Virus record (IMG/VR): IMGVR_UViG_3300046330_000118
Location: 1-52,129 of that record
Source: a virus
Lineage: Duplodnaviria > Caudoviricetes
Length of the DNA: 52,129 nt
Reading direction: 5' to 3' (one strand)
Below, in pieces: positions 1 to 13,251 of this stretch. The first letter of the stretch is position 1, and the number at the start of each line of letters is the position of its first letter. Under the pieces are notes generated by a model. That model was not told the DNA's origin. It did no database searches and was given only the letters and a program-made list of their open reading frames with translations. The position numbers were made by a program, and so were the translations under genes.

Positions 1-123
1 TTTTGTTGGCTTTCGGGATGTTAGCGCTAACAGCCACATGGCTAAGAACACCACCCGATATTTTCGATATCTGGCGATTTGAAAATAAATCATAGTTTGC
101 GAGATCTTTGGCCTTCTCAATTA
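1..123. repeat. Terminal direct repeat / assembly circularisation overlap (copy 1)
   Basis: 1-123 matches 52007-52129 except C113 vs T52119; an ORF reads through the junction. Confidence 0.95.
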
Positions 124-208
124 GCGCCTCCTTCCTGATAAGTTCTGCATTATCTCTAATCCAAATTGCTTCATGTATTGCGAATAGTCTGTCTGATTGT
201 TTACGCAT
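1..208 (-). CDS. 5' part of a 133-aa putative HTH DNA-binding protein spanning the circular junction (continues 52006->51813)
   Basis: ATG at 208 overlaps the primase stop (TAATG). Frame MRKQSDRLFAIHEAIWIRDN...FSNRQISKISGG is open into 51813..52043. HTH-like segments SNRQISKISG and SQGMISRLTGLSQSRISR. Confidence 0.75.
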   Translation of the reverse strand, partial: MRKQSDRLFAIHEAIWIRDNAELIRKEALIEKAKDLANYDLFSNRQISKISGGVLSHVAVSANIPKANK

Positions 209-2403
209 TAGTTAATCAACTCCAAGAATGTCTTGTGGCCTTCAACAAACACGTTAAGTCTGGCCTGTGAACGAAGTGCATCAACCATCTCGTCAAACTC
301 TCGCTTGCGCTTGTTGTTGAACTTCTTGTAAGCCTCTTCGTATCGCATCTTGCCACCACGCTGTAGGATTACAGCCTCAAGGCTATCAACGTCACGTTGC
401 CACTCCGAAGCGGAGATTGCACCAGCCATGCGCACAAGGTTCTTAAACCAGCCTTCTGCGTAGTGGATTGCGATAAGCAAGTGCTTTGACTCAACCTTTT
501 CTGAGCGGTCGTACATTGCAAGTAGAACTGCAATCTTCCACACAGATAGGGCTAGACGCTGGCGAGACGGCTCGATAGACTCCTCGTTAGGGTGTCCATG
601 AGTGTAGTCACCCATCTCCCACTTGAAGCGGTTGAAGCGCTCTAGCGCCTCGTCCGACAAGAAGATTGGTCGAGGGAACGGTGCACCTTTACGTCGCCAC
701 CATGAGGCGGTTCCGAATAGGCTTGCAACCAGCCTGTCCATCTCTTCGTCACGAACCATAACCTCTTGCTCACTGGCCTGTGCCAAGTCCTCGCTTTCAC
801 GAGTTCTCTCAGGTGCGTCAGCAACAACGTAAATGAATCGAGCCAAGAATCCTGAACGGAAGTAGTCGATTGTCAGAACTTCTGCAACCTTGCTTGTGAT
901 ACCCATCAAGTACATCAAGAAGTTAGTCTCGGCTCGTTCGGTCTGAACAGCCTTGACACCGCTTGAAGCGCCTGTCGAGCGAAGCATTACAGGAACTTTA
1001 CCATCGTAGAGTTCTGTGTACTGGTCAGCAGCAGCAGCCATGTAAGTCTTGGTTACAAACTCCTTGAACAGACCCTGAACCTCGTCTCGGTGGAACAGTG
1101 AGGTCATCTTGTCTCGACCTGCAAGGTGCTTGACAAGTGCTTCACCGGTCGCGTTAGAGCCGATGTCGATCTGGTAGCCTGCGTGGTTCTCGTATGCTGT
1201 AATCATTCGTAGCATGAGGCTACGGCTTGTTGACTTACGGCTACGAGTTGTCTCACCAAGTAGCATGAACCAGAGGTTTAGTCCCATTCTGCCGTATTTT
1301 GGTGCTGCACATCCAATGTCCGAGAATGCAGAAGAGAGAACGGTGAACGCACCAGCGACCTGATACTCAACAGCTCCGTCTGTTTTCTTCCCGGCCCAGT
1401 CGACGTAGGCATCGACAAAGGTTGGCGTTTCCGCAACAATTTTTCGTTCACTCTCGGTGAGGAAATCGATTTTTCTTTCATAGTCTTCTGCCTCGCTTTC
1501 AATAGGCTCAACGGTAATAACGTTTGACGTTACGCTTGCACCGGCACGTTGCACTTCACGCCACAGGTCGCCGTCTGCGTCCATGCGCTTAGGGCGGTCT
1601 GTGCGGTGGTACTTGTTGCACTTTGCATGCTTTGCAATTGTAAACACTTCTTCTGCGGTTAGCCCTTGACGGAACAGTTCCATCTCAAGTTTCCACAGCA
1701 TCTTTGACAGGTCGGCGTTTGGTGTCGGCTCGTCAAGGTATAGCGAGATAATGTCAGAGTTGCTTGAAACCTTTGCAAGCACAGCCATAACCTCAGGGAT
1801 AGCCTCAGGCATTGGTGCGTTTGCAAGTTCAGGCATAGAGTCGACAACTACACCCTTGTAGAGTTCTTCAATCTCTGCGATGGTGTAGATGATTCCGTTG
1901 GTCTCTGCAACAACCGGCTGTGACTCGTCATACTTCAAGTTGCTGGTGTCAGCAACGCGAAGCAACTTGGTCGGGTTCCAACCTGATACGTCGCAACCCT
2001 GGTCTCGGTGTGCGTAAGCAATCTTCTTTGCAAGTAGCGCAACACGCTGTGGGTCTTGCTCTCCGTCAAGCACCCAGTATGCATGCCAGCGGTCCTTAGA
2101 GGTCTCTACAGAGATCGTAGGAGCAATCTTGAAGTTGGCTGGGTTGCAGGTGTCTGCGTCTGCGTAGACGACCGAAACGCTCTTAGCGTTCTCACGAATG
2201 CGTCGCTCTTCGTAGTAAAGGATTGGCGAGAAGTACACGTCCTCAGCCTTGTGCGCCTTGGCGTATTCGGCCATCTCGTCAATTTCATCTGGATACGAGA
2301 AGAACTTTTGCACAGTAGGGACGTTGCGAGCATCCTTAGTTACGATAGTCGCGTATCCAGCGCCGTTGCCTAGCACTGTTTCTAGAAAATCTTTAATCTC
2401 CAT
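208..2403 (-). CDS. Primase-helicase: N-terminal AEP/RepB-like primase(-polymerase) domain plus C-terminal P-loop helicase-like domain
   Basis: VYFSP, YADAD (DxD), VETS..RWHAYW and LLRV motifs of RepB-like primases; C-terminal GETTRSRKST Walker A-like and HRDE Walker B-like; RBS AGAAAGGAGG. Confidence 0.8.
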   Translation of the reverse strand: MEIKDFLETVLGNGAGYATIVTKDARNVPTVQKFFSYPDEIDEMAEYAKAHKAEDVYFSPILYYEERRIRENAKSVSVVYADADTCNPANFKIAPTISVETSKDRWHAYWVLDGEQDPQRVALLAKKIAYAHRDQGCDVSGWNPTKLLRVADTSNLKYDESQPVVAETNGIIYTIAEIEELYKGVVVDSMPELANAPMPEAIPEVMAVLAKVSSNSDIISLYLDEPTPNADLSKMLWKLEMELFRQGLTAEEVFTIAKHAKCNKYHRTDRPKRMDADGDLWREVQRAGASVTSNVITVEPIESEAEDYERKIDFLTESERKIVAETPTFVDAYVDWAGKKTDGAVEYQVAGAFTVLSSAFSDIGCAAPKYGRMGLNLWFMLLGETTRSRKSTSRSLMLRMITAYENHAGYQIDIGSNATGEALVKHLAGRDKMTSLFHRDEVQGLFKEFVTKTYMAAAADQYTELYDGKVPVMLRSTGASSGVKAVQTERAETNFLMYLMGITSKVAEVLTIDYFRSGFLARFIYVVADAPERTRESEDLAQASEQEVMVRDEEMDRLVASLFGTASWWRRKGAPFPRPIFLSDEALERFNRFKWEMGDYTHGHPNEESIEPSRQRLALSVWKIAVLLAMYDRSEKVESKHLLIAIHYAEGWFKNLVRMAGAISASEWQRDVDSLEAVILQRGGKMRYEEAYKKFNNKRKREFDEMVDALRSQARLNVFVEGHKTFLELIN

Positions 2404-2435
2404 GTATCCTCCTTTCTATTTGTTTCTCCCATTTG

Positions 2436-2507
2436 CTGCCCCTGCTGGATTCGAACCAACAACCTTAGAGTTAACAGCTCTCTGCTCTGCCATTGAGCTA
2501 AGGGGCA
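2436..2507 (-). tRNA. tRNA-Asn (GTT), CCA not encoded
   Basis: Acceptor TGCCCCT/AGGGGCA, D arm GCTC-AATGGCA-GAGC, anticodon loop CTGTTAA, T loop TTCGAAT, discriminator G. Confidence 0.95.
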
Positions 2508-2696
2508 AGGTATGATGCGCAGTTGACTAGACTACCATCACAGGCTCTATTCTTCATACACCTCCAAGCGGGAGCACTGTTGTAGGCGCTTTTGTCCTAC
2601 TCAGGGCTGTTGTCTGCCCATCACTCTTTCTTTGGCGAGCGAGTCCACCATCTAGCATTTCGGCACTAGCACCTAACATGAGGAGTCACCCTCATC
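2508..2696 (-). ncRNA. Candidate structured ncRNA (chain of hairpins) between the tRNA-like element and tRNA-Asn
   Basis: Consecutive stems ATGAGG/CCTCAT, CTAGTG/TGCTAG, TCGCTC/GAGTGA, GGGC/GCCC, GTAGG/CCTAC, CTCC/GGAG, TGATG-GTAGT/ACTGC-CATCA; no convincing ORF. Confidence 0.5.
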
Positions 2697-2766
2697 GTGC
2701 CCCGGTCAAGAATCGAACTTGACTGCGCCAGAAAGGAGAGAAACGGGGCGCAACGCCAGTGGGGGC
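2697..2766 (-). ncRNA. tRNA-like RNA lacking a D stem, with an anti-SD pyrimidine loop instead of an anticodon loop
   Basis: T arm GTCAAG-TTCGATT-CTTGAC, acceptor-like GCCCC/GGGGC-A, stem TGCGCC/GGCGCA enclosing CCGTTTCTCTCCTTTCT. Confidence 0.6.
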
Positions 2767-2770
2767 TTGT

Positions 2771-2799
2771 GGGGTAGTTTTAAGTCATACCCCAGGACT
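2771..2799 (-). ncRNA. Compact H-type pseudoknot just 3' of the SSB-like gene
   Basis: AGTC-CT-GGGGTA-T-GACT-TAAAAC-TACCCC: S1 AGTC/GACT, S2 GGGGTA/TACCCC. Confidence 0.55.
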
Positions 2800-2810
2800 G
2801 CCCATTTAGA

Positions 2811-3284
2811 TTATGAAACCCAAATTTCGCTAGCCGACTTTACGTTGATTGGCTCAGCAAGCGATGAAGCAGTTGCAGTGCCAGCCTTGACGAAGCCTGC
2901 AACGTTGTTGTCTTCTCCGCCGTTCTGACCAGGAACAACGGTAACCTTTACGGCCACTGCCTTACCAGCCAACTCGTTTGGAGTCGGGACGGTGAACGAG
3001 CCTTCGCTCATGTCGTAGCCCAGAGCCGAGAAGAACGCCTGAGACTTCCAGAAGGCCTTGCCGGTGTATAGGGGGACGTAGGTGAAGATGCGACGGTTCT
3101 CAGCCTTGCCGTCCGAGATGCGGAACTGCAACTTGTACTGAGGCTTGCCGGCGTTCTCGCCTGACTTGACCTCGGTCAACTCGGCGTTGAAGACGGTTGC
3201 GTTGTAGGTTCCGGCAGGGATTGGTGCGTAGTCGCTGTTCTGCTGTAGGTCAGCAGGTGATAGATTGATTGTTAGGTTTGACAT
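2811..3284 (-). CDS. DUF669-like single-stranded DNA-binding protein
   Basis: PIPAGTYNATV...VKSG.NAGKPQYKLQFRI...ELAGKAVAVKV pattern; directly downstream of the AAA ATPase as in Sak4-SSB modules. Confidence 0.75.
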   Translation of the reverse strand: MSNLTINLSPADLQQNSDYAPIPAGTYNATVFNAELTEVKSGENAGKPQYKLQFRISDGKAENRRIFTYVPLYTGKAFWKSQAFFSALGYDMSEGSFTVPTPNELAGKAVAVKVTVVPGQNGGEDNNVAGFVKAGTATASSLAEPINVKSASEIWVS

Positions 3285-3288
3285 AAGT

Positions 3289-4017
3289 CTAGTTTCCTCC
3301 TAGTTTGTTGATGCCGTCAATGATTTTCTTGATGCTTGGGCCGTACAGCTTTGCTGGCAGTCCGAAGCGGTTTCCAGATACGAGACGCTCTGAAGACTGC
3401 AAGTTTAGCACACGATGTACAACTCCTGCTTCGTCAGTTTCTGCGCCCATGTATCCGATAATGTCAGGGATAGCTGGAAGCGTGTTCTTCGCTGACCCCG
3501 GCAACATTGGCACAGTCTTAACTGCACCAGTCTGGTCGTCCTTGTCGTCCTGAGCGTGTGCTACGAGGATTGATAGGAACGGAGCGGCGTGAAGTTTGCG
3601 GGCCAATAGGTTGATCCACTCCTTCAAGTCACCCCACTTACCGAACTTGTTGTTGCGGTTCTCTGGTTTCTCTCCAAAGAATTTCTCTGCCCGGTCCATC
3701 GCAACGCCGAGCGTGTCGATGATAACGGTCTTGTACTTGTGAGGCTGGTCGAGTAGCGCAGTAACTACGCTGTCGAACTTCTCGTGAGTGTCAACCTCAA
3801 CCACGTCGACATCTTTCCAGTCACGTGCAATTGCGGATGAGCCACCCTCGGTGTCAATTACTAGAACTGGTGAGAGTTCCTTGACTTCAGCGGCTGATGC
3901 AGCAAACCAAGACTTACCACGCTTTGGGTCGCCGTAGACCAGGATGGTCTTTGGCGTGTTTAGTTTGTCTGCTTTTGTAATGAACTGCTCAAAGGGCAGT
4001 TTTGGGAAATCGCTCAT
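3289..4017 (-). CDS. AAA-family ATPase (Sak4-like recombination/annealing protein)
   Basis: Walker A YGDPKRGKS, IDTEGG, Walker B VIIDT, DIIGYM. Confidence 0.85.
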   Translation of the reverse strand: MSDFPKLPFEQFITKADKLNTPKTILVYGDPKRGKSWFAASAAEVKELSPVLVIDTEGGSSAIARDWKDVDVVEVDTHEKFDSVVTALLDQPHKYKTVIIDTLGVAMDRAEKFFGEKPENRNNKFGKWGDLKEWINLLARKLHAAPFLSILVAHAQDDKDDQTGAVKTVPMLPGSAKNTLPAIPDIIGYMGAETDEAGVVHRVLNLQSSERLVSGNRFGLPAKLYGPSIKKIIDGINKLGGN

Positions 4018-4045
4018 TTTGTTTTCTCCTCCTTAAGAGATATTC

Positions 4046-4074
4046 AGTATAACATATTCAATTCTACTTGTCAA
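4046..4074 (-). promoter_or_regulatory. Sigma70/SigA-type promoter
   Basis: TTGACA-17 bp-TATACT; the spacer contains the repeated TTGAATATGTT motif. Confidence 0.85.
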
Positions 4075-4303
4075 GCGCTTTTTCAAGTTTCTTCAAATTG
4101 TTTGCAAATGCCATCATCTTTACGAAACGATACAGTCCAAACGTAATCATAATCGATACGATCGATAGCATAATCCACTTGAGTGCTTCTGAGTCGCTTT
4201 CCTTTGCGCCCCACAGCAGGATTACTGAGAAGCAGATGCGATAGATTAGCGCCATGCTTGATGCCAGTCGGACGGTTGTCTTGTTTACGTTTATGTTATT
4301 CAT
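4064..4303 (-). CDS. Small membrane protein (2 TM)
   Basis: Two hydrophobic stretches; start coupled to the upstream stop. Confidence 0.7.
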   Translation of the reverse strand: MNNINVNKTTVRLASSMALIYRICFSVILLWGAKESDSEALKWIMLSIVSIMITFGLYRFVKMMAFANNLKKLEKALDK

Positions 4304-5025
4304 TAGGCCTCCAAAACCTTGCAGTCGAAGCAGTGCTCTTCACGCTGGAACTCTTCGATATCTTTACCGGACTGAACCTCAGCCCAGATTCTTGCTAATC
4401 TGTCCCACATTGATTGTGCGAATGCTTCGTCATAAGGGAATGTCCAAGTCCACACGTCAGGGTCGTACGTGCCATCTCGGTTGATGAACACAAGAGAACA
4501 CGCATCGATCTCAGTGCCACCCTTGTTCAAGCCCCATGCGTAAATCTGCGCCTGCGCAAAGTATCGCTTGAGGGTGTAGGTTGACTCAGCGGCAACCTTA
4601 GTGTCCCTGGCCTCGCCTAGCACAACGGACTGCAACTGGCGTGACTTCTCACGCTTCGATGTCTTCCAGTCAACAAGGTGCTTGCCCTCAACTAGGGCCA
4701 GGTCTGGCTTTGACTTGATTGTACCGTAGCCGTCAAGTTCGCCCAGTACGATTGTCTGCTCAACACGAGCAGATGCAAACTCTGGAAACTCATCAAGGTC
4801 GACTGTCTCGATACGCGCCTCTAGGAACTCATGGATTGCAGTTCCTACCTTAGCGCCCATCCAGTATTTAAACTCGCCTGACGGCAGGCCTAGCAACTTC
4901 TTGGCTAAGTGGAACTCGCATGGGTCAGAGAAGTCTGATGCTCCTACTTTGCGTTGCGAGTCTCTTGCGGACTTTTGCTTGAAAAGCCCAAGCGCCATGT
5001 CCCTGATTCGTGAATCCGGAATCAT
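4303..5025 (-). CDS. PD-(D/E)XK (Cas4/RecB-like) exonuclease
   Basis: GTAIH, PD...DWKT, QAQIYAWG and C-terminal HCFDC. Confidence 0.85.
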   Translation of the reverse strand: MIPDSRIRDMALGLFKQKSARDSQRKVGASDFSDPCEFHLAKKLLGLPSGEFKYWMGAKVGTAIHEFLEARIETVDLDEFPEFASARVEQTIVLGELDGYGTIKSKPDLALVEGKHLVDWKTSKREKSRQLQSVVLGEARDTKVAAESTYTLKRYFAQAQIYAWGLNKGGTEIDACSLVFINRDGTYDPDVWTWTFPYDEAFAQSMWDRLARIWAEVQSGKDIEEFQREEHCFDCKVLEA

Positions 5026-5046
5026 TTTCTCTCCTTTAAATGTGTA

Positions 5047-5388
5047 TTAGAACAGTGTATCTGGTTTTCTGGAAAAGTCAATACCGCCCCACACTCCATA
5101 CTGCTCCTCGTTTGCAACAGCAAAGTCGTAGCACTGCTTTAGTATTGGGCAACCATAGCACAAGGCTTCGCAGTCGTCCTCGGTGAGGGCTGAGCGCCCA
5201 GGTCCGTTGCCACTGCGAGCCTCAAAACCCAGACCGTCATAGTCGGTATAAAAGTATGGGTTATACAGGCATGGGTAGTATGGTTCTTTCTCGATTGCCG
5301 AGAACAACGCTCGCCACTTCCCCATAGCCTCCGGCTTTATGCCGAAGTGCAATGGGTCGGTAGTCATAATGGTTCCGTCTCCGGCCAT
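5047..5388 (-). CDS. whiB: WhiB-family transcription factor
   Basis: C...CYGC-PILKQC and GVWGG signature. Confidence 0.9.
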   Translation of the reverse strand: MAGDGTIMTTDPLHFGIKPEAMGKWRALFSAIEKEPYYPCLYNPYFYTDYDGLGFEARSGNGPGRSALTEDDCEALCYGCPILKQCYDFAVANEEQYGVWGGIDFSRKPDTLF

Positions 5389-5930
5389 TACTCGGCTTCC
5401 TTTGCAAACGCTAGACGCGTAATCTCTTCAGAAGCCAGTAGAACAGCAATAGGGGCACTGGCGGTAATAATAACACCCATCCAAACTCGGTAGTCAGAAG
5501 AAGTCCCATCCCAGTAAGCAAGAGTGTGGCTTGCATTAGCCACAACAGAAATGATCGCAAACCCCGATAGTCCAAGTGTCGTCCTCCAAGTAGATTCACC
5601 GCGAGCCTTGAACACAATCAGCGAGACTGTATAGGCCAAGATTGCAGCGTCGATGAATAGTGCCGGTAGCCATTGGATAACCTTTGGGATTCCAGTCCAC
5701 TCTGAGACAGAGTAGATACCACTGAATGATACAGCGAATGATGAGACCATTAGTATGCCCACCAGCACAACAGCGAGTAGCAGAACCGGTATAGAGTCTG
5801 GGTTGATTCGAGCCTTCTTTACAGCAGGCTTTTCTTCCTTTACGATAATCTCTTCTAGCATCTCTTCCTCTGTGAACTGGTGCTTAATTGGGTTGTAGAT
5901 AGGTTCAAACCCGACCACTTCATTCCTCAT
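5388..5930 (-). CDS. DUF2637-like multi-pass membrane protein
   Basis: SFAVSF...WLPALFIDAAIL...SVVANASH...APIAVLL pattern, about 4 TM segments. Confidence 0.7.
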   Translation of the reverse strand: MRNEVVGFEPIYNPIKHQFTEEEMLEEIIVKEEKPAVKKARINPDSIPVLLLAVVLVGILMVSSFAVSFSGIYSVSEWTGIPKVIQWLPALFIDAAILAYTVSLIVFKARGESTWRTTLGLSGFAIISVVANASHTLAYWDGTSSDYRVWMGVIITASAPIAVLLASEEITRLAFAKEAE

Positions 5931-6201
5931 TCCTCAAAATTCCTAACAGTTTATTCACCATCTCTGGCTCCCACAGTGTGCCTTTGTTGTATTGCTCAAT
6001 CATTGCAATCGCCTTTTCAACGCCTTGCTTGCGCTTTTCGTTCTCGATGTGCTGTGCATACTCTAGAGGCGAGAACAGCGGTGGGCTCATCCTATTCTCG
6101 ACCACCCAACTATTGTAGTCCTGAATAAGACTAATGTCAATGGTTGTCGAGAATTCAATCATCTCGCCAGTTCGTGGGTCTACAATTTCGTAATCGCTCA
6201 C
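5920..6201 (-). CDS. Hypothetical protein
   Basis: Coupled ORF in the leftward operon; VDPRTGE motif. Confidence 0.75.
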   Translation of the reverse strand: MSDYEIVDPRTGEMIEFSTTIDISLIQDYNSWVVENRMSPPLFSPLEYAQHIENEKRKQGVEKAIAMIEQYNKGTLWEPEMVNKLLGILRNEE

Positions 6202-6446
6202 TTGTGGTTCTCTCCTAGTAGGAATGAGTGGAGCGACTTAATCTTGTCGATGCGGAAGCCGGACCAAATCTTGATGTCAGTCTCGACGATAGGGGCTTGT
6301 AGCAAACCCTTAGCCTTAAACTCTTCCAACTTGTCTGGGTGCTCTGTTAGGTCGTATGACTCATACTTGATTCCGAGTCGATCGAGTTCCTTCTTTGTCA
6401 TCATACACTGCACACAACTTGGGGTGCTCCACACCTTGATGTCCAT
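6198..6446 (-). CDS. nrdH: NrdH-like glutaredoxin
   Basis: CVQC active site, QAPIV and WSGFR motifs. Confidence 0.9.
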   Translation of the reverse strand: MDIKVWSTPSCVQCMMTKKELDRLGIKYESYDLTEHPDKLEEFKAKGLLQAPIVETDIKIWSGFRIDKIKSLHSFLLGENHK

Positions 6447-6447
6447 A

Positions 6448-6618
6448 TTATTCCTCTACTTGTCCGTATGTGAAAATTTGCTTGTGTAGTTCTCGGTGCA
6501 ACTTGTCCAACTCTTTGCAGGCTTTCCATTGCCCAGCCTCTGTATAAGCAGACTCGGCCGCTTTCATCGAGGTGAAGAGCATTTCAACCTGTTGCCTTGT
6601 TAGTTCAATCTCAACCAT
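6448..6618 (-). CDS. Hypothetical protein (56 aa, not in ORF track)
   Basis: Hand translation MVEIELTRQQVEMLF...YGQVEE*; fills the operon gap. Confidence 0.7.
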   Translation of the reverse strand: MVEIELTRQQVEMLFTSMKAAESAYTEAGQWKACKELDKLHRELHKQIFTYGQVEE

Positions 6619-6695
6619 TGGCCTGCTTCATCTCCTCTAGCAATTCGTCATACGCAATCAATACCTGCACCTCAACTAGTAGTGCTAGTTCTGCT

Positions 6696-6872
6696 TTAGT
6701 CAAAATAAAGTTCCAATTCCATATCTTGCCACGCGTCAAAATCTGCGTCACACCTGCAACCGTGGCTTATGCCACACTCGTCGCAACCGTGGTTCTCACA
6801 GTTGCACTCATCTGCGCAATCGTCTGCCTCACAGCAGTCCGGGGCCCAGACATCCTTAGGTTCTAGTAGCAT
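6696..6872 (-). CDS. Acidic Cys-rich mini-protein (58 aa, not in ORF track)
   Basis: MLLEPKDVWAPDCCEADDCADECNCENHGCDECGISHGCRCDADFDAWQDMELELYFD; strong RBS AAGGAGG. Confidence 0.75.
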   Translation of the reverse strand: MLLEPKDVWAPDCCEADDCADECNCENHGCDECGISHGCRCDADFDAWQDMELELYFD

Positions 6873-6969
6873 TGTCCTCCTTGTGGCAATCGCAATCGCA
6901 GATGTAATTTGGTATCTCTAGTATGCACTGTTTGTGGTGACTTGTCAAGCACCAACCCAGCCTAGCCAA
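6856..6969 (-). CDS. Putative Cys/His-rich mini-protein (37 aa)
   Basis: TTG start overlapping the helicase end: MARLGWCLTSHHKQCILEIPNYICDCDCHKEDNATRT. Confidence 0.5.
   Translation of the reverse strand: MARLGWCLTSHHKQCILEIPNYICDCDCHKEDNATRT
6920..6948 (-). promoter_or_regulatory. Sigma70/SigA-type promoter
   Basis: TTGACA-17 bp-CATACT. Confidence 0.65.
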
Positions 6970-8356
6970 CTTGTTTTCTCAGGCTTTCGTTCATCCTCAG
7001 TTGGTCTTTGACAAGTCGTGATAACTGACCCTCGTCGTAAGTATCCTCAGCGATAATCTCATAACTAATCACCGAGCGTTTCTGCCCACGACGATCGAGG
7101 CGACCAGCGGCCTGCTCATTGAGTAGACGGTTGTCGTCCTTAGACAGCCACACAACCACGCTAGCGGCTTCCTGTAGCCCATCTGTTCCCTCACCGATTG
7201 CTGAGATTACAGCCACGATGAACTGAATCTTGCCGGCAATGAAGTCCGTCAGAGCCTGGTCACGCACTGGCTGAGAAGCCTTGCCCGACCACTCGAAAGC
7301 GTTGAAGCCTAGGCGTTGCAGTCGCTTAGTCACAACCTCAGCGAACTTCTGGCTATGGGTTAGGATAAGCATCTGCTCGCCTTGTGGGTGGTCTCCGATT
7401 ATTTGGAGGAGTTCCTCATACTTGGATGATTTACAATCCTCGCCAAACGTAACTTCTCCCTGCTCATTGATTTCAGGCACTCCGAGCGTAATTTGTCTAA
7501 GACGAATACGCACAGCAACAGGAACTTCAACGACAAGCGGGTTCTCACCAAGCCAAACGAATAATTCTTTCTCAAGTTTCTTATAAATCCTTTTCTGCTC
7601 TGAGGCTAGTTCCACTGTCCGGACTTCCGTCTGGACTGGTGGTAGTTCATTGTCAATGCCCTCTGGGTGAAACTCACAGCACTTCTCACGCTTGAGGTGG
7701 CGGATGTAGCAGGGGATTGACTCGATGATTGCGCCGGGGTTTACCTCACCAGTAATAATCTTCCCGGCAAAGAAGTCAACCTCAGTTGAACAATACTTGT
7801 CAACCCAGTTCCAATACGAGCGACCGGCGACATCTGGGTAAATCCATTTCAGGATGGCCCAGATGCCATCGATCTTGTTCCCTGCCACTGTGCCTGACAT
7901 TCCGATACGGCGCTTAGCCTTTAGGGTCGTCAGCATAATGGCAGTCTTGCTCTTGCGGTTAGACGCTCGGTGAACCTCATCAAATACCGCTAGGTCAGGC
8001 GTGATGCCTTTCCAGTGGAACTTGCGGAAATACTCTGGGCTGACCATAAACCAGCCCTTAGCCCCAGCCTCTAACGCTTTGAACGCTTGCTGTCCTGCGA
8101 CAGTAGAGTTCACATAGAACACCTCAGCGCCGGGAATCTGACGCTTGATAGTCTTCTCCCACGCTCGCTTGTGCGTTCCCTTTGGCGCAATGACAAGATT
8201 AGTCCTAGTGGCAAGACGCTTACCAACCTCAATGGCAATAAGCGTCTTACCTCCACCTACCTGCGTTGCTACAATGCCTGAGCCGTCATTGGTAATAAGT
8301 TGTTCAATGTCTCGTTCCTGATAGTTATAAGGAACAAGGGGTGCTTCACTGGTCAA
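6962..8356 (-). CDS. SF2 (SNF2/DEAD-like) DNA helicase
   Basis: YQ motif, GGGKT, DEVH, MSGT, QAAGRLDRRGQ; start moved to TTG 8356 after GGAG. Confidence 0.9.
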   Translation of the reverse strand: MTSEAPLVPYNYQERDIEQLITNDGSGIVATQVGGGKTLIAIEVGKRLATRTNLVIAPKGTHKRAWEKTIKRQIPGAEVFYVNSTVAGQQAFKALEAGAKGWFMVSPEYFRKFHWKGITPDLAVFDEVHRASNRKSKTAIMLTTLKAKRRIGMSGTVAGNKIDGIWAILKWIYPDVAGRSYWNWVDKYCSTEVDFFAGKIITGEVNPGAIIESIPCYIRHLKREKCCEFHPEGIDNELPPVQTEVRTVELASEQKRIYKKLEKELFVWLGENPLVVEVPVAVRIRLRQITLGVPEINEQGEVTFGEDCKSSKYEELLQIIGDHPQGEQMLILTHSQKFAEVVTKRLQRLGFNAFEWSGKASQPVRDQALTDFIAGKIQFIVAVISAIGEGTDGLQEAASVVVWLSKDDNRLLNEQAAGRLDRRGQKRSVISYEIIAEDTYDEGQLSRLVKDQLRMNESLRKQVG

Positions 8357-8519
8357 GATACTGTCTCCAATAGTTTTCGTGCTGTGCTTTGTAGTTTGGC
8401 ATATCGCTTCTTGTTTTTGTGCTGTCACCATCTTTGTCTAGCATGGCAACGATAACAACAATAAAAGGAGTGATTAGTGCTAGGAAGAACGCAAGCCAGA
8501 TAATGCTAGATGCTTGCAA
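8346..8519 (-). CDS. Small single-TM protein (57 aa, not in ORF track)
   Basis: IIWLAFFLALITPFIVVIVAML hydrophobic helix; fills the gap between coupled genes. Confidence 0.6.
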   Translation of the reverse strand: MQASSIIWLAFFLALITPFIVVIVAMLDKDGDSTKTRSDMPNYKAQHENYWRQYLDQ

Positions 8520-8982
8520 GAACGTCTGTTACTGCGTCGTTCTGATACAACTGTCCGACTACGAATGCGTCACCGCTTACGTGTTCAAACTCGCCGGCTT
8601 CATCAATAGAAACAACCGCCTCACCGGAAACTCGGGCAAAGCCGAAGTTCTGTAGCACGACTCGGTAAGTGCCGTCGTCTTGCCTCGCGATAGTCCATCC
8701 CGCTGATGTCGAACGCGTTACTAGTTCGCTTGTCTCTGCGAGGATGTCTTGAACAGTCTTGTAGTTGCTCGTGCCGATAGTCTTGCCTAACTGGGTGCGT
8801 GGCACTCCAGCCTCAGCGGCCAAGCGTAGCGCAATGTCACGCTTACGCTTGATAACCGCCAACTGCTCGTTCAACTGCTTCTTGAGTTCGGCCTCCAGCG
8901 TTGCCTTGGCTAGCACATACGCTGAATGCTCCTCTACGAGGGTCTCAAGGGCTTGTCTAGCGTGTGGTGTTAGTCGAGTCAT
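8506..8982 (-). CDS. Putative HTH DNA-binding protein
   Basis: ALRLAAEAGVPRTQLGKTIGTSNYKTVQDIL resembles an HTH. Confidence 0.6.
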   Translation of the reverse strand: MTRLTPHARQALETLVEEHSAYVLAKATLEAELKKQLNEQLAVIKRKRDIALRLAAEAGVPRTQLGKTIGTSNYKTVQDILAETSELVTRSTSAGWTIARQDDGTYRVVLQNFGFARVSGEAVVSIDEAGEFEHVSGDAFVVGQLYQNDAVTDVLASI

Positions 8983-9265
8983 TGACTACCTCACTTTCTC
9001 CTGCCGAGATTACGTCGTGGACTACGCCATCGATCAATCGGCCAATGGTTAGCGAGGTTAGGTCTGCGGTTAGCAACTCTAGTTCTCGTGGGTCTACCGG
9101 CTTCTCAACAACAACCTCAACCACCTGAGTGTATGCGTCTAGCGGATACCACTTGTAGTCTGAGATGTTTGGCGTATCTGATAGGAAACGCTTTTCGCTG
9201 CGTAGGCTGTCGACAACGTTAGAGATTTCACTAACGTCACCTGTAATAATGTATTCGAGTTTCAT
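8957..9265 (-). CDS. Hypothetical protein
   Basis: RBS AAGGAGGAA; coupled ORF. Confidence 0.75.
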   Translation of the reverse strand: MKLEYIITGDVSEISNVVDSLRSEKRFLSDTPNISDYKWYPLDAYTQVVEVVVEKPVDPRELELLTADLTSLTIGRLIDGVVHDVISAGESEVVNDSTNTTR

Positions 9266-9301
9266 ATTCCTCCTTAGGAATGTTAGGGATTTATTGTATC
9301 A

Positions 9302-9937
9302 CTATTTGTCGCACTTTGAACAATTGCAGGAGTGTTTCCCGTCCTTGTCCATAGACTTCTTTTCCTCCACAGTTCGAGGGCAGTCCTTATACCAAGAGTC
9401 TTCGTCGTCGTCCCACTCACACACGCACTCACGCCCCTTTGAGACGTAATCCTCGTGCGAATCTGGGATGTCCCACTCGGACTTGTGGCTAACCTCGCCG
9501 TTGTGGTAGGTGAGGATGCCACCCCAGCCCTGCTCCTCTTCGTATTCAACGTTGAAGATTAGGTTTGGGAACATCTTTGCCATAGCGTCGAACACTGGCA
9601 TTGGTGGCGACCATGCAGTGTTGAAGTTGATAAGCACATAGTCGCTAAGGCCACGCTCCACAACTTCTTCACAAGCGTTCCACTTGGTGTCCCAGTTCTC
9701 GTTGTTCCACTTATACCAGTTGAACTCAGGGTCTCCGCTAAACACGCCACCACTGTAACCGGCGACGCTGTGGTATTGCTCCACCTTGTCCTCTGGCGGG
9801 GTGACGAACGAGTGGAAGTTGAACTGCCTCGGTTCATTTGGGGTGAACGGTGACGGCTTGCTAGCGTGTTCTAGGAACGCTGTTACCTCTGCGTCGCTAC
9901 CTCGAACAGAAATTGAATTGAATACCCAGTTAGGCAT
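9302..9937 (-). CDS. DUF1281/YubB ferredoxin-like domain protein
   Basis: MPNW..N, WY.WN..NWDTKWNA and F.TAWSPP signature motifs. Confidence 0.8.
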   Translation of the reverse strand: MPNWVFNSISVRGSDAEVTAFLEHASKPSPFTPNEPRQFNFHSFVTPPEDKVEQYHSVAGYSGGVFSGDPEFNWYKWNNENWDTKWNACEEVVERGLSDYVLINFNTAWSPPMPVFDAMAKMFPNLIFNVEYEEEQGWGGILTYHNGEVSHKSEWDIPDSHEDYVSKGRECVCEWDDDEDSWYKDCPRTVEEKKSMDKDGKHSCNCSKCDK

Positions 9938-10118
9938 TGTCGGTCTCCTTTGTCTTTACTTCCTCAACGTCGAAATACCATTCGGCGTGTATTTCGTAAT
10001 CCTCAAAATCGTCGGCTATCCAGTCTTGAACCTGCTTGTAAGCCTCGTCCTTGTTGGTGGCCTCAACCTCCACCTTATACCAGTGTCGGCGTGTTGCGTA
10101 AATTGCATACTTAGTCAT
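9930..10118 (-). CDS. Small hypothetical protein (DpnD/PcfM-like)
   Basis: VEVEATNKDEA motif; start reassigned to MTKY after AAGGAG. Confidence 0.7.
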   Translation of the reverse strand: MTKYAIYATRRHWYKVEVEATNKDEAYKQVQDWIADDFEDYEIHAEWYFDVEEVKTKETDNA

Positions 10119-10278
10119 TGTTGCGCTCCTTCTTCTTGAAAGCAATGTCAACGCTGTAAAACTCTGCTACAAGTTCTAGGGCGTTGCCCCAAAACTCAAT
10201 CTCAATGGCGGTGTCCTTGTGCATTTGCACTAGGTCGTCAGCCAGTCTACTGGCAATCTTCTCTAGTCTTGGGTTCAT
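10111..10278 (-). CDS. Hypothetical protein
   Basis: Start MNPRLEK after GAGGAG. Confidence 0.7.
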   Translation of the reverse strand: MNPRLEKIASRLADDLVQMHKDTAIEIEFWGNALELVAEFYSVDIAFKKKERNND

Positions 10279-10279
10279 C

Positions 10280-10483
10280 CTATATCTCCTCTTCATCAAT
10301 GCTCATCCGAGCGTCTAGGTCAAATAGTCTTAGGTTGTCGTGTCCCACAAATCGATCGATAACAAACCACTGACGCTGTGAGAGCGTGTCCTCGTGGCCA
10401 TGCAGTTGCTCTAGGTACTCCTCTAGCAGTGCGCCCTCTAGTTTGTATACGGCCTTGAAAGTTACGGTAATTTGCTTAGTCAA
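10280..10483 (-). CDS. Hypothetical protein
   Basis: Coupled ORF, TTG start. Confidence 0.7.
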   Translation of the reverse strand: MTKQITVTFKAVYKLEGALLEEYLEQLHGHEDTLSQRQWFVIDRFVGHDNLRLFDLDARMSIDEEEI

Positions 10484-10577
10484 AAATCACGCTCAGGCTT
10501 TCTCCGCCACAACTAGGGCAGATGTCGGTGTTGCTTGTCGGGTCTGGCTCACTCCAGCCACATTCTCTACAAATCAT
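10476..10577 (-). CDS. Zinc-ribbon mini-protein (33 aa, not in ORF track)
   Basis: MICRECG...ICPSCGG; RBS GGAG. Confidence 0.65.
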   Translation of the reverse strand: MICRECGWSEPDPTSNTDICPSCGGESLSVIFD

Positions 10578-10779
10578 TTTTCTCCAGATAATCCAATCTT
10601 GTTGCCAGTCGGCTCACTTTGCGGAGTGACTGGTTGATACTAGTGTATATCTCTCGCTTGGCTTTGTCAAGCCAATCTGGGTCTGATGCAAAGAAAGTTC
10701 CAGCAACCGCGTCCCCGAGGACTGGCATCTCCATCAAATCTAGTTCTTCACATAGCGCGGTGATAATGTCTTCGCGCAT
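10567..10779 (-). CDS. Hypothetical protein
   Basis: Start reassigned to MREDIIT. Confidence 0.65.
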   Translation of the reverse strand: MREDIITALCEELDLMEMPVLGDAVAGTFFASDPDWLDKAKREIYTSINQSLRKVSRLATRLDYLEKNDL

Positions 10780-10792
10780 CTCTTCTTGACTG

Positions 10793-11068
10793 TTATACAA
10801 GCGACAATGCCTCATTCGCCATATACATCTCATCTAGTGGAACGGCAATCTTCTTGGCAATCGCCTCAATCTGTGCCACCTTCCTGTCGAGGGCCTGCCC
10901 CTTGTCTTCACGCTTGTTGTAGGTGTTGAGGTCGGCAATCGCTGATAGAACTGCTGAGCGGTCGAACAGAGCCTCCTCGGCCAGCATAATCTCCTCTAGG
11001 GTTAGATAGACGGCGTAGGTCGGCTGGTTAGGCTTGAGAGCCTCTTTGATAACGGTTTTGTCAATCAT
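10793..11068 (-). CDS. Hypothetical protein
   Basis: ORF in the tightly packed leftward cluster. Confidence 0.75.
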   Translation of the reverse strand: MIDKTVIKEALKPNQPTYAVYLTLEEIMLAEEALFDRSAVLSAIADLNTYNKREDKGQALDRKVAQIEAIAKKIAVPLDEMYMANEALSLV

Positions 11069-11296
11069 TTAGATACCTTCTTCTCTCATGATGTTGATGT
11101 AACTGTTTAGGTCGTCGTCGGTTAGGTAGTGGTTCTGGATGATGTCCTCTGCCAGCCACTCCCACTGTGCCTCGGTGAGTGTGCCGTCATAGGCTTGTTC
11201 GAGTTCCTCTTTCTCGATAAGCATATAAGCAACCGTCCGGTCGCCATCCTTAGCGAGGTATTTGTTCAGGATAAAAATTAGTTCACTGAGTAGCAT
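11069..11296 (-). CDS. Hypothetical acidic protein
   Basis: LSELIFILNK...LTEAQW motif. Confidence 0.75.
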   Translation of the reverse strand: MLLSELIFILNKYLAKDGDRTVAYMLIEKEELEQAYDGTLTEAQWEWLAEDIIQNHYLTDDDLNSYINIMREEGI

Positions 11297-11507
11297 TATT
11301 CTCTTTCATTTTGTTTTCAAAGTCAACTGCTTGACTGTAACTTAGGTTCTTGAGTTGGTCTTCAGCGATGAAGAAGAACTCCTTGTAAATAGGCTGGTAA
11401 AGTTCCCCTGCGATAGCGTCTGCCACCTTGCGACTCTTACAGGTCATAACTAACCGGCCGGTCTGGTCGTAGAACGCAATCGATCGAAGTCGAGGGTTGC
11501 TAGCCAT
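11283..11507 (-). CDS. Hypothetical protein
   Basis: Coupled ORF. Confidence 0.7.
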   Translation of the reverse strand: MASNPRLRSIAFYDQTGRLVMTCKSRKVADAIAGELYQPIYKEFFFIAEDQLKNLSYSQAVDFENKMKENNATQ

Positions 11508-11730
11508 TGATGATTTCCTTTACGGCCTGCTTCATAGTGTCGTTACCATCGTCACCGAGGAACTCGTTATTGTCGTAGTAGTAGGCGATATCCGACCACT
11601 GCTTGTCGGTCAGTGCCTCGTTTGTGAACTCCTCAGCGTCCTCCTTGAGCCAAATCTGGTTGATACCTAGGATTGTCTCGGGTGGCATTGTGGACAGGAA
11701 TGCGATAACTTCTCGGACTGTTCTTGACAT
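11500..11730 (-). CDS. Hypothetical acidic protein
   Basis: TVREVIAFLSTMPPET...LTDKQW; RBS AAAGGAG. Confidence 0.75.
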   Translation of the reverse strand: MSRTVREVIAFLSTMPPETILGINQIWLKEDAEEFTNEALTDKQWSDIAYYYDNNEFLGDDGNDTMKQAVKEIING

Positions 11731-11776
11731 TATTTACTCCTTTTTGTGATTGTTTGTGTAGTTTGGGGACGGATTC

Positions 11777-12103
11777 CGACACGCCCGAAATGCATTCAAT
11801 ATGTTATTTGCATTGAATATGTTAGGGGTTACATTGGTGAATCTCATAAAATGTCTTCGTAGAATATACTATAATCTACTAACAAAAAATGCTATGTAAT
11901 GGTCGGGGGATGTTGCGGAGGGGGTGATTTCGCATTCAATATGTTCAGGATTGAAACATATTAGATGCAAAATGGGCCAAATTTGAAAGTGTTCTATGTC
12001 TCTATATTATTTATTATTATATTATTTGTCTATGTAGTGAGGACTGGGGAGCGAGCGTGAAGTCTACACAACGCACTCGGGCGTGTCGTGGGTTGAATAT
12101 GTT
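11777..12103. repeat. AT-rich non-coding region with a 12-bp inverted repeat and multiple AATATGTT boxes
   Basis: CGACACGCCCGA 11777-11788 / TCGGGCGTGTCG 12077-12088; GCATT(C/G)AATATGTT at 11792, 11810, 11932; inverted variant 11955-11968; TTGAATATGTT at 12093. Confidence 0.8.
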
Positions 12104-12108
12104 ATCAA

Positions 12109-13197
12109 TTAGTCCCAGTAAGAACGACGGCTAAAACGAGAGCCGATAGTCTGGGACCGATTGAACTGATACTCATCCTCAGAAGCCGGAGTGACCTCCT
12201 CAGGGTCTTGGGTGTAACACATATTCTTGTCCGACCAGTAACGGTTGTAACGAGCCGTCTCGTAGTCCTCGTGAAGAGTGTCATAAGTTCCCATATAAGT
12301 GCCGTCGAAGTCATAGTAGAAACCCTCGTGAAGCACAAAGCCCTCTAAGTAATCCTCGAAGCCCTCGTCATACTCCTCCCACAAGCCACTGTATGGGTCG
12401 TCATAGCCCCAAGCAGTGCTTTGCTGGGTGAACTTGCCACCGGCAGTCGCAGAGCGGTAAGAGGCGTAAGAGGATGCTGACAACTTCTGCTCGAACTCAG
12501 GGTCAAGGTCAGGCAAAGTAGACATCTCATCAATGCGACCATCGCGAACAGCAAGCAGTGTGCGCTCCTTCACGTCCATAATGAAGTTATACTTGAGGCC
12601 AACAGAATCCAAGGCATTAGTCAGGATAGACTCGGTAGAGGCAAACACGAACGAGCCGTCAGCCAACTGAGCAACAGTCAAAGGACTGTGGCTGATACGA
12701 GCAACATTGAGAACACCCTTGTTAGACTCGTCAAGCCAAGCAACAGCCGCATCGCCGTCAAGCATAGAGAACTTGTCAGTAGAAGAGAACTGCTGAAGAA
12801 TAGCAGGAATAACAGCAGTATCAACATCTGGCAACTGCTTAGACTTAGACAAATGCGCACGAACAAGGTCGTGGTTATAAATGACACCATTGTGAACAAG
12901 GCTAATAGACGAATCAGGCGACTGAACCGGGTGATTGTTACGGTTATCACGAATAGAGCCATGCGTTGCAAGGCGAGTGTGCAAAATGACACTAGAAGCC
13001 TGCTTAGGCATAGACTTGAGAGTTAGGTTGCTACCAGAAACATCCTGCTTATAGAAGCCAGAACCCTGAGCATACTGGAAAGCATAACCAGAAGCCTGAT
13101 TGCCACGCTTCTCCAGTCCGGTAAGCAAAGCGTGAGCGAGTTTACGAGCATTTACTTTAGAGCCTGTCGAGAGGCTGAATCCACCGATTCCACACAT
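12109..13197 (-). CDS. Class-II (Ntn) glutamine amidotransferase
   Basis: N-terminal MCGIGG (Cys2 nucleophile), RG..ASG, HTRLATHG, NNHP, HNGVI, DTA; start reassigned to 13197. Confidence 0.9.
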   Translation of the reverse strand: MCGIGGFSLSTGSKVNARKLAHALLTGLEKRGNQASGYAFQYAQGSGFYKQDVSGSNLTLKSMPKQASSVILHTRLATHGSIRDNRNNHPVQSPDSSISLVHNGVIYNHDLVRAHLSKSKQLPDVDTAVIPAILQQFSSTDKFSMLDGDAAVAWLDESNKGVLNVARISHSPLTVAQLADGSFVFASTESILTNALDSVGLKYNFIMDVKERTLLAVRDGRIDEMSTLPDLDPEFEQKLSASSYASYRSATAGGKFTQQSTAWGYDDPYSGLWEEYDEGFEDYLEGFVLHEGFYYDFDGTYMGTYDTLHEDYETARYNRYWSDKNMCYTQDPEEVTPASEDEYQFNRSQTIGSRFSRRSYWD

Positions 13198-13251
13198 AAT
13201 ATCTAATCCATTCCGACCCATCCGGGTCAATTGCGTTTTCCAACTACTTAT

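Follow-up and report, generated by a model that had tools for sequence, protein, structure and literature searches.

The window analyzed here is the complete IMG/VR record IMGVR_UViG_3300046330_000118, a stretch of 52,129 nucleotides (nt) from a virus of the class Caudoviricetes. We describe in this record a structured RNA element that spans positions 2697–2808 on the minus strand, between the gene for a single-stranded DNA-binding (SSB)-like protein and the gene for a primase. The element is composed, in order, of a short leader, an H-type pseudoknot, a spacer of 3–4 nt, and a tRNA-like domain that is devoid of a D arm and displays a pyrimidine-rich loop. We propose, with a probability of about one in two, that it belongs to an unnamed family of phage structured RNAs in which excision by tRNA processing would leave a pseudoknot-capped ssb mRNA and the freed RNA would pair with the ribosome-binding sites (RBSs) of replication genes. 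A first-pass annotation, prepared from the letters of the window, had described the tRNA-like domain; it overlooked the pseudoknot, the extension of the element on the 5′-side to approximately position 2808, and the fixed genomic context.

Conservation and Covariation

Relatives were collected by scanning IMG/VR with the primase; the scan returned 115, and 80 loci were retained. An iterated nucleotide profile, and subsequently a covariance model constructed from 22 sequences, were used to search the window and these loci. One copy of the element was found in the window and in each of the 77 loci that have DNA upstream of the primase (77/77); the remaining 3 of the 80 loci are without that DNA. 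These 78 copies were all recovered by the covariance model as well (E = 1e-29 to 2e-6). A second scan, seeded by the most divergent primase, provided 16 new loci, and the element was present in all 16.

The same context was recovered when the primase was not used in the search. A pattern scan gave 89 stretches, 80 of which were listed, 3 of these under already known locus identifiers, and the covariance model was run on 77. It confirmed the element in 57 of these loci, and the other 20 correspond to the number of chance matches that had been estimated beforehand. A DUF669 gene upstream and a primase downstream were found in 49 of the 57 confirmed loci, and the other 8 end before one of the two genes. 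Wherever a confirmed locus has room, the SSB-like gene (DUF669) is directly upstream and the primase is downstream. The element is represented by at least 97 distinct sequence variants. No relatives of the element were found in bacterial genomes. Among cultured-phage records, a blastn search with positions 2400–2900 matched 173 records, and all 40 of the matches listed cover only the neighboring tRNA-Asn; a megablast search with positions 1–12000 similarly matched the tRNA and not the element.

The five helices of the element were evaluated in two alignments. In a MAFFT alignment of the 22 sequences, 93.3% of the cells are paired, compared with 24–43% when the pairing partners are slid, and 22 of the 27 pairs (those of the pseudoknot included) change on both sides. 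In an alignment of 68 distinct sequences fitted to the covariance model, 93.9% of the cells are paired, compared with 31–47% for the slid partners, and 22 of 23 pairs are compensatory. The latter alignment leans to the model from which it was made; the results from MAFFT and from RNAalifold, where 14 of 15 predicted pairs are compensatory, do not. G·U pairs outnumber A·C pairs by 55 to 6, which assigns the RNA to the minus strand. On the strength of this conservation and covariation, the element is beyond reasonable doubt a conserved structured RNA. Stem covariation in relatives had been named in the first-pass annotation as a check on the fold, and both alignments bear it out. The alternative fold put forward there, in which GCCCCG pairs with CGGGGC, was not supported; only 48.5% of its cells are paired, a value that is reached by 305 of 500 shuffles, and there is no compensatory change.

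Architecture of the Element

The tRNA-like domain occupies positions 2697–2766 on the minus strand. Its acceptor is formed by GCCCC (2762–2766) and GGGGC (2699–2703), with the sixth position, C2761/C2704, mismatched in the window, and it is followed on the 3′-side by A2698 and then C2697. The T arm, GTCAAG-TTCGATT-CTTGAC, is at positions 2705–2723, and a 6-bp “anticodon” stem is formed from TGCGCC (2747–2752) and GGCGCA (2724–2729). An 8-nt linker (2753–2760), with UGG at positions 2756–2758, stands in place of the D arm. The T arm, the acceptor with its trailing A, the missing D stem, and the stem with its loop had all been listed in the first-pass annotation, and all are present on the minus strand.

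These features are retained in the relatives. Across 68 sequences, there is no variation in the T stem-loop residues common to all tRNAs (G, T, T, C, A, and C), and in the model-fitted alignment the T stem is 98.2% paired with compensatory change in 5 of its 6 pairs. The 5–6 pairs of the acceptor and the 6 pairs of the T stem give a stack of 11–12 bp, as in tRNA. At the third pair of the acceptor, 63 of the 68 sequences have C-G, 5 have U-A, and none has G·U. The dinucleotide AC follows the acceptor in all of the 67 complete sequences. No D stem-loop is present in any of the aligned sequences, which have instead a single-stranded linker of 8–9 nt. The UGG of this linker is more than 90% conserved, and it would be a natural candidate for the contacts that G18 and G19 make with the T loop. 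Among 60 distinct arms, the “anticodon” stems are 5–10 bp in length and the loops 10–39 nt, compared with 5 bp and 7 nt in a tRNA.

Programs and models for known RNAs do not recognize the domain. ARAGORN makes no call on the element in the window, and none of the 78 elements is overlapped by an ARAGORN call. A search of Rfam 15 at E ≤ 10 gave no match at the element in the window, the tRNA (RF00005) and transfer-messenger RNA (tmRNA, RF00023) families included. A tmRNA match to the element was likewise not obtained when 8 relatives were searched, and the loop has neither a stop codon nor a resume context. YrlA (Y RNA-like; RF02553), in which a Ro-binding stem closes the tRNA-like module, gave no match at the element, and a weak hit was found elsewhere in locus L072 (26.4 bits, compared with a gathering score of 69). 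With no D stem, no variable loop, a loop of 10–39 nt, and 0 of 78 ARAGORN calls, the element is, by all of these sequence features, not a tRNA.

The element nevertheless occupies the place expected of the leading unit in a tRNA array. In 9 loci, a true tRNA begins 1–9 nt downstream of the conserved AC. Of the 78 loci, 28 have the element and the primase separated by one tRNA or more, with distances of up to 745 nt, and in 35 the primase start is 13–61 nt past the element.

Immediately upstream of the tRNA-like domain is the H-type pseudoknot (2770–2799, minus strand). Stem 1, AGUC/GACU, is formed from positions 2796–2799 and 2783–2786, and stem 2, UGGGGUA/UACCCCA, from positions 2788–2794 and 2770–2776. 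Loops 1 and 2 are single nucleotides (C2795 and U2787, respectively), and loop 3 is the A-rich UAAAAC at positions 2777–2782. In the 22 sequences of the MAFFT alignment, stem 1 is 98.9% and stem 2 is 100% paired, and 7 of 10 pairs have changed on both sides. When each sequence was searched individually, an H-type knot with a score of at least 9 was found in 57 of 62 distinct upstream segments, compared with 1 of 310 shuffles. The sequences of the knot are quite different between clades and the topology is the same; loop 3 is 66% A. The knot is separated from the acceptor by the 3-nt linker CAA (2767–2769) in the window, and by 3–4 nt in 55 of 63 distinct sequences. The distance from the SSB stop codon to stem 1 of the knot is 11 nt in the window and 5–16 nt in 56 of 61 loci. 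These fixed spacings, from the stop codon to the knot and from the knot to the acceptor, suggest that the three parts work together.

The 11-nt spacer between the SSB stop codon and the pseudoknot (2800–2810, minus strand) contains a conserved leader, AAAUGGGC (2800–2807). The AAUGGGC of the leader is kept in most clades, and in the alignments it covaries with no other part of the element. Three possible roles were considered for this region and rejected. Pairing of the GGGC of the leader with the 5′-strand of the acceptor is excluded by the constancy of the leader while the acceptor varies (CTCTC, GCCAC, GCTCT). A small open reading frame (ORF) starting from the ATG of the leader is excluded by an unconserved length and stop codon and by the loss of the ATG in some clades. 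A frameshift or readthrough signal is excluded in that no in-frame slippery site is found at the 3′-end of ssb in the window, and none is common to the relatives.

The Pyrimidine-Rich Loop and the Ribosome-Binding Sites

The loop of the “anticodon” arm (2730–2746, minus strand) is a 17-nt pyrimidine-rich, anti-Shine–Dalgarno (anti-SD) tract, CCGTTTCTCTCCTTTCT (that is, CCGUUUCUCUCCUUUCU), and it is unpaired in both the minimum free energy (MFE) and centroid folds. Twelve of its nucleotides (2732–2743) are complementary to the RBS AAAGGAGAGAAA at positions 5026–5037 on the minus strand, which abuts the ATG of the exonuclease ORF (4303–5025). Nine nucleotides (2730–2738) are complementary to the segment AGAAAGGAG of the primase RBS at positions 2409–2417 on the minus strand, just upstream of the primase ATG. 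Both complementarities had been noticed in the first-pass annotation and are exact. The 12-mer occurs at exactly two sites in the window, 2732–2743 on the plus strand and 5026–5037 on the minus strand, with 0 occurrences expected from 100 shuffles. When duplexes with the loop were predicted over 63 start regions of the window, first place was taken by the exonuclease RBS (−16.6 kcal/mol) and second place by that of the primase (−15.9 kcal/mol), compared with a median of −8.2 kcal/mol.

The character of the loop is conserved in the relatives, as the first-pass annotation had suggested should be examined. In the 60 distinct arms, the loops are on average 89% pyrimidine; CTCC is found in 58, CTCCTTT in 46, TCTCC in 47, and CCTCC in 29. 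The longest perfect complement between each loop and the RBSs of its own locus was determined using one representative per cluster at 80% identity, and the means were compared with those from 2000 permutations. For the primase RBS the mean was 7.61 nt, compared with 6.79 ± 0.23 nt for the permuted pairs, a value reached in 2 of 2000 permutations. For the exonuclease RBS the mean was 8.11 nt, compared with 7.04 nt, and it was reached in none of the 2000. The RBSs of SSB (6.27 versus 6.26 nt, reached in 1041 of 2000) and of Sak4 (6.46 versus 6.18 nt, reached in 277 of 2000) gave no signal, and both were rejected as co-varying targets. The complement between the loop and the primase RBS is no weaker in the loci where tRNAs intervene (8.28 nt, n = 36) than elsewhere (7.54 nt, n = 24). 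Antisense pairing with RBSs is favored over a pure mimic of the rRNA tail because the loop co-varies with the RBSs of the primase and the exonuclease, which also form the two best duplexes.

The first-pass annotation put forward a match between a sequence of the loop and the 3′-tail of actinobacterial 16S rRNA. The published comparison (PMC6288834) includes no actinobacterium; the end of the loop in the window, CUCCUUUCU, equals the final 9 nt of GAUCACCUCCUUUCU, the tail that is reported there for several bacteria. The loops of L017 and L020 contain ACCUCCUUUC.

Upstream of the primase SD sequence is a second purine-rich box, GGGAGAAAC (2421–2429, minus strand), 7 nt of which are complementary to the 5′-half of the loop. 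Similar boxes are found in relatives; for example, GAGAGATAAA in L063 and L076 provides a 10-nt complement to the loops of these loci.

Proposed Mechanism

We propose that the element is co-transcribed as part of an ssb–primase transcript. RNase P would cut at G2766, the 5′-end of the tRNA-like domain, and the 3′-side would be trimmed after the conserved A-C by the usual 3′-processing of tRNAs, in the same manner as the neighboring tRNAs. The ssb mRNA would thus be left with the pseudoknot and approximately 3 nt at its 3′-end. The 3′-exonucleases need a single-stranded tail that is longer than this, and the capped message should resist them. The primase message would be split from the ssb mRNA, which would uncouple the synthesis of abundant SSB from that of scarce primase. 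The released tRNA-like RNA, or the loop acting in cis prior to cleavage, would then pair with the purine-rich RBSs of the primase and exonuclease genes, compete with the 3′-tail of 16S rRNA, and tune the translation of both proteins. Such a mechanism would suit a phage that requires SSB in large and primase in small amounts. The first-pass annotation had suggested that a tRNA scaffold delivers either an antisense RNA that blocks RBSs or a mimic of the rRNA tail. The scaffold that displays an anti-SD tract has withstood the comparison with relatives; the blocking of RBSs is something that we infer.

A minus-strand scan of the region from the ssb gene to the element predicted no promoter or terminator, which would be consistent with co-transcription, although the prediction used a sigma-70 consensus and is weak evidence. 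The mechanism is an attractive hypothesis.

Evaluation of the Proposed Function

Several observations weigh against the function proposed above. The predicted stability of the element (MFE of −25.4 kcal/mol) is not exceptional, with z = −0.71 and 45 of 200 shuffles folding equally well. Because of this z value, thermodynamics cannot show that the element is real, and the case rests on conservation and covariation. In one metatranscriptome run of low depth (X24, share 0.05), contigs of neighboring genes were found, for example at positions 2804–3050 and 3493–4023, and none of them crosses positions 2697–2803; contigs cannot show the ends of an RNA. No transcript, processing site, or CCA end of the element was seen in this run. 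The proposed mechanism does not account for the conserved leader AAUGGGC. With respect to the targets, 40 of the 60 arms find their longest complement in the locus at a site other than the primase RBS. The permutation test is subject to the limits that clustering removes shared ancestry only in part and that any gene with a long, strong SD sequence is favored as well. Any mimic of the 16S tail would match strong SD sequences, and target specificity is thus putative. In L033-35, L085, and L086, the pseudoknot and scaffold are kept and the arm is a short hairpin whose loop is U-rich and lacks CUCC; L087, which is adjacent to this clade, has a long pyrimidine loop that is also without CUCC. Because a small clade keeps the scaffold without the anti-SD loop, pairing with SD sequences is not the sole function of the element, and the scaffold has a role of its own.

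This last observation is the main support for an alternative in which the element is exclusively a module for processing and stabilization. The tRNA-like cleavage signal would split the ssb–primase transcript, the knot would cap the ssb mRNA, and the loop would serve another purpose, such as the binding of S1 or of the phage SSB-like protein. The fixed spacings on either side of the knot, the invariable placement of the element directly after the SSB-like gene, and the long hairpins found in several lineages between the element and the primase RBS can all be accommodated, and T4 gp32 is known to regulate translation through an RNA pseudoknot (PMC10690425). What makes this explanation unlikely in our estimation is the loop itself; CUCC is retained in 58 of the 60 distinct arms, perfect complements of 9–12 nt to RBSs are formed, and the co-variation is with the RBSs of the primase and exonuclease and not with that of SSB. 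The co-variation with the primase RBS would also be expected from a translational operator that acts on the primase purely in cis, with the loop sequestering the SD sequence or a tRNA-binding protein docking and blocking the ribosome. The close spacing of 13–61 nt in 35 of 78 loci and the finding that 20 of 60 arms have their best complement at the primase RBS agree with such an operator, and tRNA-like cis-regulators of translation, such as yjdF, have been described (PMC9142559). The link in cis would be cut, however, in the 28 of 78 loci with intervening tRNAs, because these tRNAs get processed, and there the element and its loop are conserved and the complement is longer (8.28 versus 7.54 nt). 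Co-variation is also seen with the exonuclease RBS, which is located over 2 kb upstream. We regard a purely cis-acting operator as a rather improbable explanation.

The resemblance of the loop to the rRNA raises another alternative. Host abortive-infection systems include toxins that cleave the anti-SD sequence, and the loop could be a decoy of the 16S rRNA 3′-tail that soaks up such a toxin or some other factor that recognizes or cuts the tail. The identity between the loop end and the last 9 nt of the published tail (PMC6288834), together with ACCUCCUUUC in the loops of L017 and L020, would be in keeping with a decoy. On the other hand, UCUCC is found in 47 of 60 loops and the CCUCC of the rRNA in only 29, the loop flanks follow the RBSs of the phage's own primase and exonuclease, and the tail comparison used no actinobacterium; we consider a decoy very unlikely. 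Finally, one may ask whether the element is a decayed tRNA, a chance resemblance, or a site that functions at the level of DNA, such as an attP core or a plus-strand RBS. Genes for tRNA-Asn, -Thr, -Trp, and -Gln do come and go at this locus, and the stability is no higher than that of shuffles. Against this, the features that differ from tRNA recur in all 94 loci, compensatory changes are found in five helices, G·U pairs exceed A·C pairs by 55 to 6, and no relative was found in bacterial genomes. The plus-strand AGGAG, which the first-pass annotation had considered as the RBS of a real ORF, has no start codon within approximately 20 nt. A decayed tRNA or DNA site is ruled out, as far as sequence comparison can do so, by conservation and covariation, and the probability that we assign to this group of explanations is negligible.

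Comparison with Known Systems

The element shares with tRNA (RF00005) the stacking of the acceptor on the T arm over 11–12 bp, the invariant T stem-loop, a GG in the D-loop region, and a location in line with true tRNAs at spacings of 1–9 nt. It differs from tRNA in having no D stem, no variable loop, a loop of 10–39 nt rather than 7 nt, and no match to the model. The similarity to tmRNA (RF00023) includes the acceptor and T arm, a stemless D loop, a long helix that replaces the anticodon stem, and pseudoknots nearby. Unlike tmRNA, the element has no G3·U70 pair for alanine identity and no tag reading frame, and its pseudoknot is outside of the acceptor. Small RNAs (sRNAs) of Gram-positive bacteria, among them 6C RNA of Actinobacteria, RsaE/RoxS, and RNAIII, direct C/U-rich loops against SD sequences. 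The element resembles these RNAs in its unpaired, pyrimidine-rich loop that is complementary to RBSs of the GGAG type. The sRNAs, however, are simple hairpins with their own promoter and terminator, whereas the element has a tRNA-like scaffold, a pseudoknot upstream, and a fixed intergenic position.

A 3′ tRNA-like structure (TLS) with upstream pseudoknots is found in tobacco mosaic virus. Valine-type TLSs with upstream pseudoknot domains are described for plant RNA viruses in PMC7749636. As in the element, one or more pseudoknots are located directly upstream of the tRNA mimic, after the stop codon of an ORF. The plant viral structures differ in that they terminate an RNA genome at its 3′-end, form the acceptor with a pseudoknot, retain an anticodon, and are aminoacylated; the element is internal to the transcript of a double-stranded DNA phage and has an ordinary acceptor stem and no anticodon. 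Among cis-regulators, the thrS operator mimics tRNA and acts in a synthetase-dependent manner. The yjdF riboswitch, as presented in PMC9142559, also uses tRNA mimicry to control the initiation of translation of a downstream gene. Control of this kind is strictly in cis, via a ligand or a synthetase, whereas the element is often split from the primase by true tRNAs.

A parallel in layout is the 3′-end of MALAT1, where, according to PMC8457004, a triple-helical expression and nuclear retention element (ENE) is followed by the tRNA-like mascRNA and RNase P makes the cut. In both cases a compact, 3′-protecting structure is followed after a few nucleotides by a tRNA-like RNA, and in the element the distance from the end of the knot to the acceptor is 3–4 nt for 55 of 63 sequences. 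Excision of the tRNA-like RNA would also create the mature 3′-end of the upstream RNA. There are also differences. MALAT1 is a eukaryotic nuclear long noncoding RNA and not a phage mRNA, and it is protected by a U-A·U triple helix and not by an H-type pseudoknot with an A-rich loop 3; mascRNA has no anti-SD loop, and for the element cleavage is only inferred. By analogy, the element might be a phage counterpart of MALAT1/mascRNA, in which RNase P would free a CCA-tagged riboregulator that outcompetes the 16S tail at the primase and exonuclease RBSs and would leave behind a pseudoknot-capped SSB message. This more specific version is tentative and we consider it doubtful. If it were correct, a single RNA would set the ratio of SSB to primase by processing and by repression in trans.

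Novelty and Significance

Mimicry of tRNA is well known from RNA viruses, tmRNA, and a few bacterial regulators, and anti-SD loops are well known from Gram-positive sRNAs. We found no description in the full-text literature of a natural RNA in which a tRNA scaffold, preceded by a pseudoknot, presents an anti-SD tract, and there is no such family in Rfam 15. The motif may already be listed in the 2023 catalogue of approximately 8,500 unnamed structured-RNA candidates from IMG/VR (PMC10690425).

If the proposed function is correct, the phage would use the tRNA-processing machinery of its host to make a stable riboregulator, and the same step would shape the stability of the neighboring mRNA. The engineered “tRNA scaffold” that is used for the expression of recombinant RNAs would also gain a precedent in nature. 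The element would further supply a compact covariance model with which to annotate, in freshwater phages of a widespread group, an intergenic region that programs for finding genes and tRNAs now leave blank.

Gene Neighborhood and Additional Observations

The window is the full virus record, has a G+C content of approximately 50%, and is contained in runs that are labeled as freshwater metagenomes. In the first 12 kb, the genes are on the minus strand. They include a helicase and, upstream of the element in the direction of transcription, a WhiB-like regulator (5047–5388), the exonuclease ORF (4303–5025; PHROG exonuclease, E = 6.1e-22), a Sak4-like protein (3289–4017), and the SSB-like protein (2811–3284), which matches ssDNA-binding families in PHROG and DUF669 in Pfam (E = 1.6e-8) and has its TAA stop codon at positions 2811–2813. 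Downstream are a true tRNA-Asn (GTT anticodon; 2435–2507), which is the next unit after the element and was identified by ARAGORN and by the Rfam tRNA model (64.3 bits), and the primase of the DUF3987 type (208–2403; PHROG DNA primase, E = 7.7e-166; Pfam DUF3987). From what is known of the WhiB family, the regulator may point to an actinobacterial host. No relative of the primase was found in bacterial genomes, and there is accordingly no prophage copy and no clue to the host from this source.

Between the element and the tRNA-Asn is a 187-nt segment (2509–2695, minus strand) that is outside of the conserved element, holds a 41-codon ORF (2554–2679), and is missing in near relatives. In DNA contigs of two near relatives (runs X4 and X7), position 2508 is joined to position 2696 via 7 other letters. 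The segment is thus swapped for 7 nt, and the tRNA-Asn follows approximately 9 nt after the element in these relatives. A 6-bp hairpin forms the start of the segment, which also includes another AUGGGCAGAC motif that resembles the leader of the element.

The set of tRNAs that follows the element varies across L002–L106, from none to Asn, Thr, Trp, and Gln in different orders. ARAGORN made 54 calls in 82 sequences upstream of the primase. The varying complement indicates that tRNA genes are gained and lost at the spot upstream of the primase while the element stays. Long perfect hairpins were observed between the element and the primase RBS in L009, L010, L012, and L026 (at approximately 2910–2990) and in L090, L094, and L095 (at approximately 1400–1490). 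These hairpins may reduce transcription into the primase by read-through, as attenuators or terminators.

A second tRNA-like RNA, approximately 83 nt in length, was observed in the same intergenic region of L017 (2705–2787) and L020 (2466–2548), and by eye also in L072, L002, L005, L006, L044, and L102. It has a 7-bp acceptor with G·U as the third pair, and its 5′-part is similar to that of tmRNA. The tmRNA model matches it from end to end with the middle deleted, at 41–42 bits (the gathering score is 47) and E values of about 1e-13. From its sequence, this RNA looks like a “mini-tmRNA” that is limited to the tRNA-like domain. For the window, no comparable match was reported.

Elsewhere in the window, a protein with a glutamine-amidotransferase domain (12109–13230, minus strand) is divergent from a protein with an amidoligase domain (13716–15218, plus strand), and this site is the switch between two gene blocks. 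Genes for ThyX, dUTPase, and an RNase H-like exonuclease are located at 47.9–50.5 kb.

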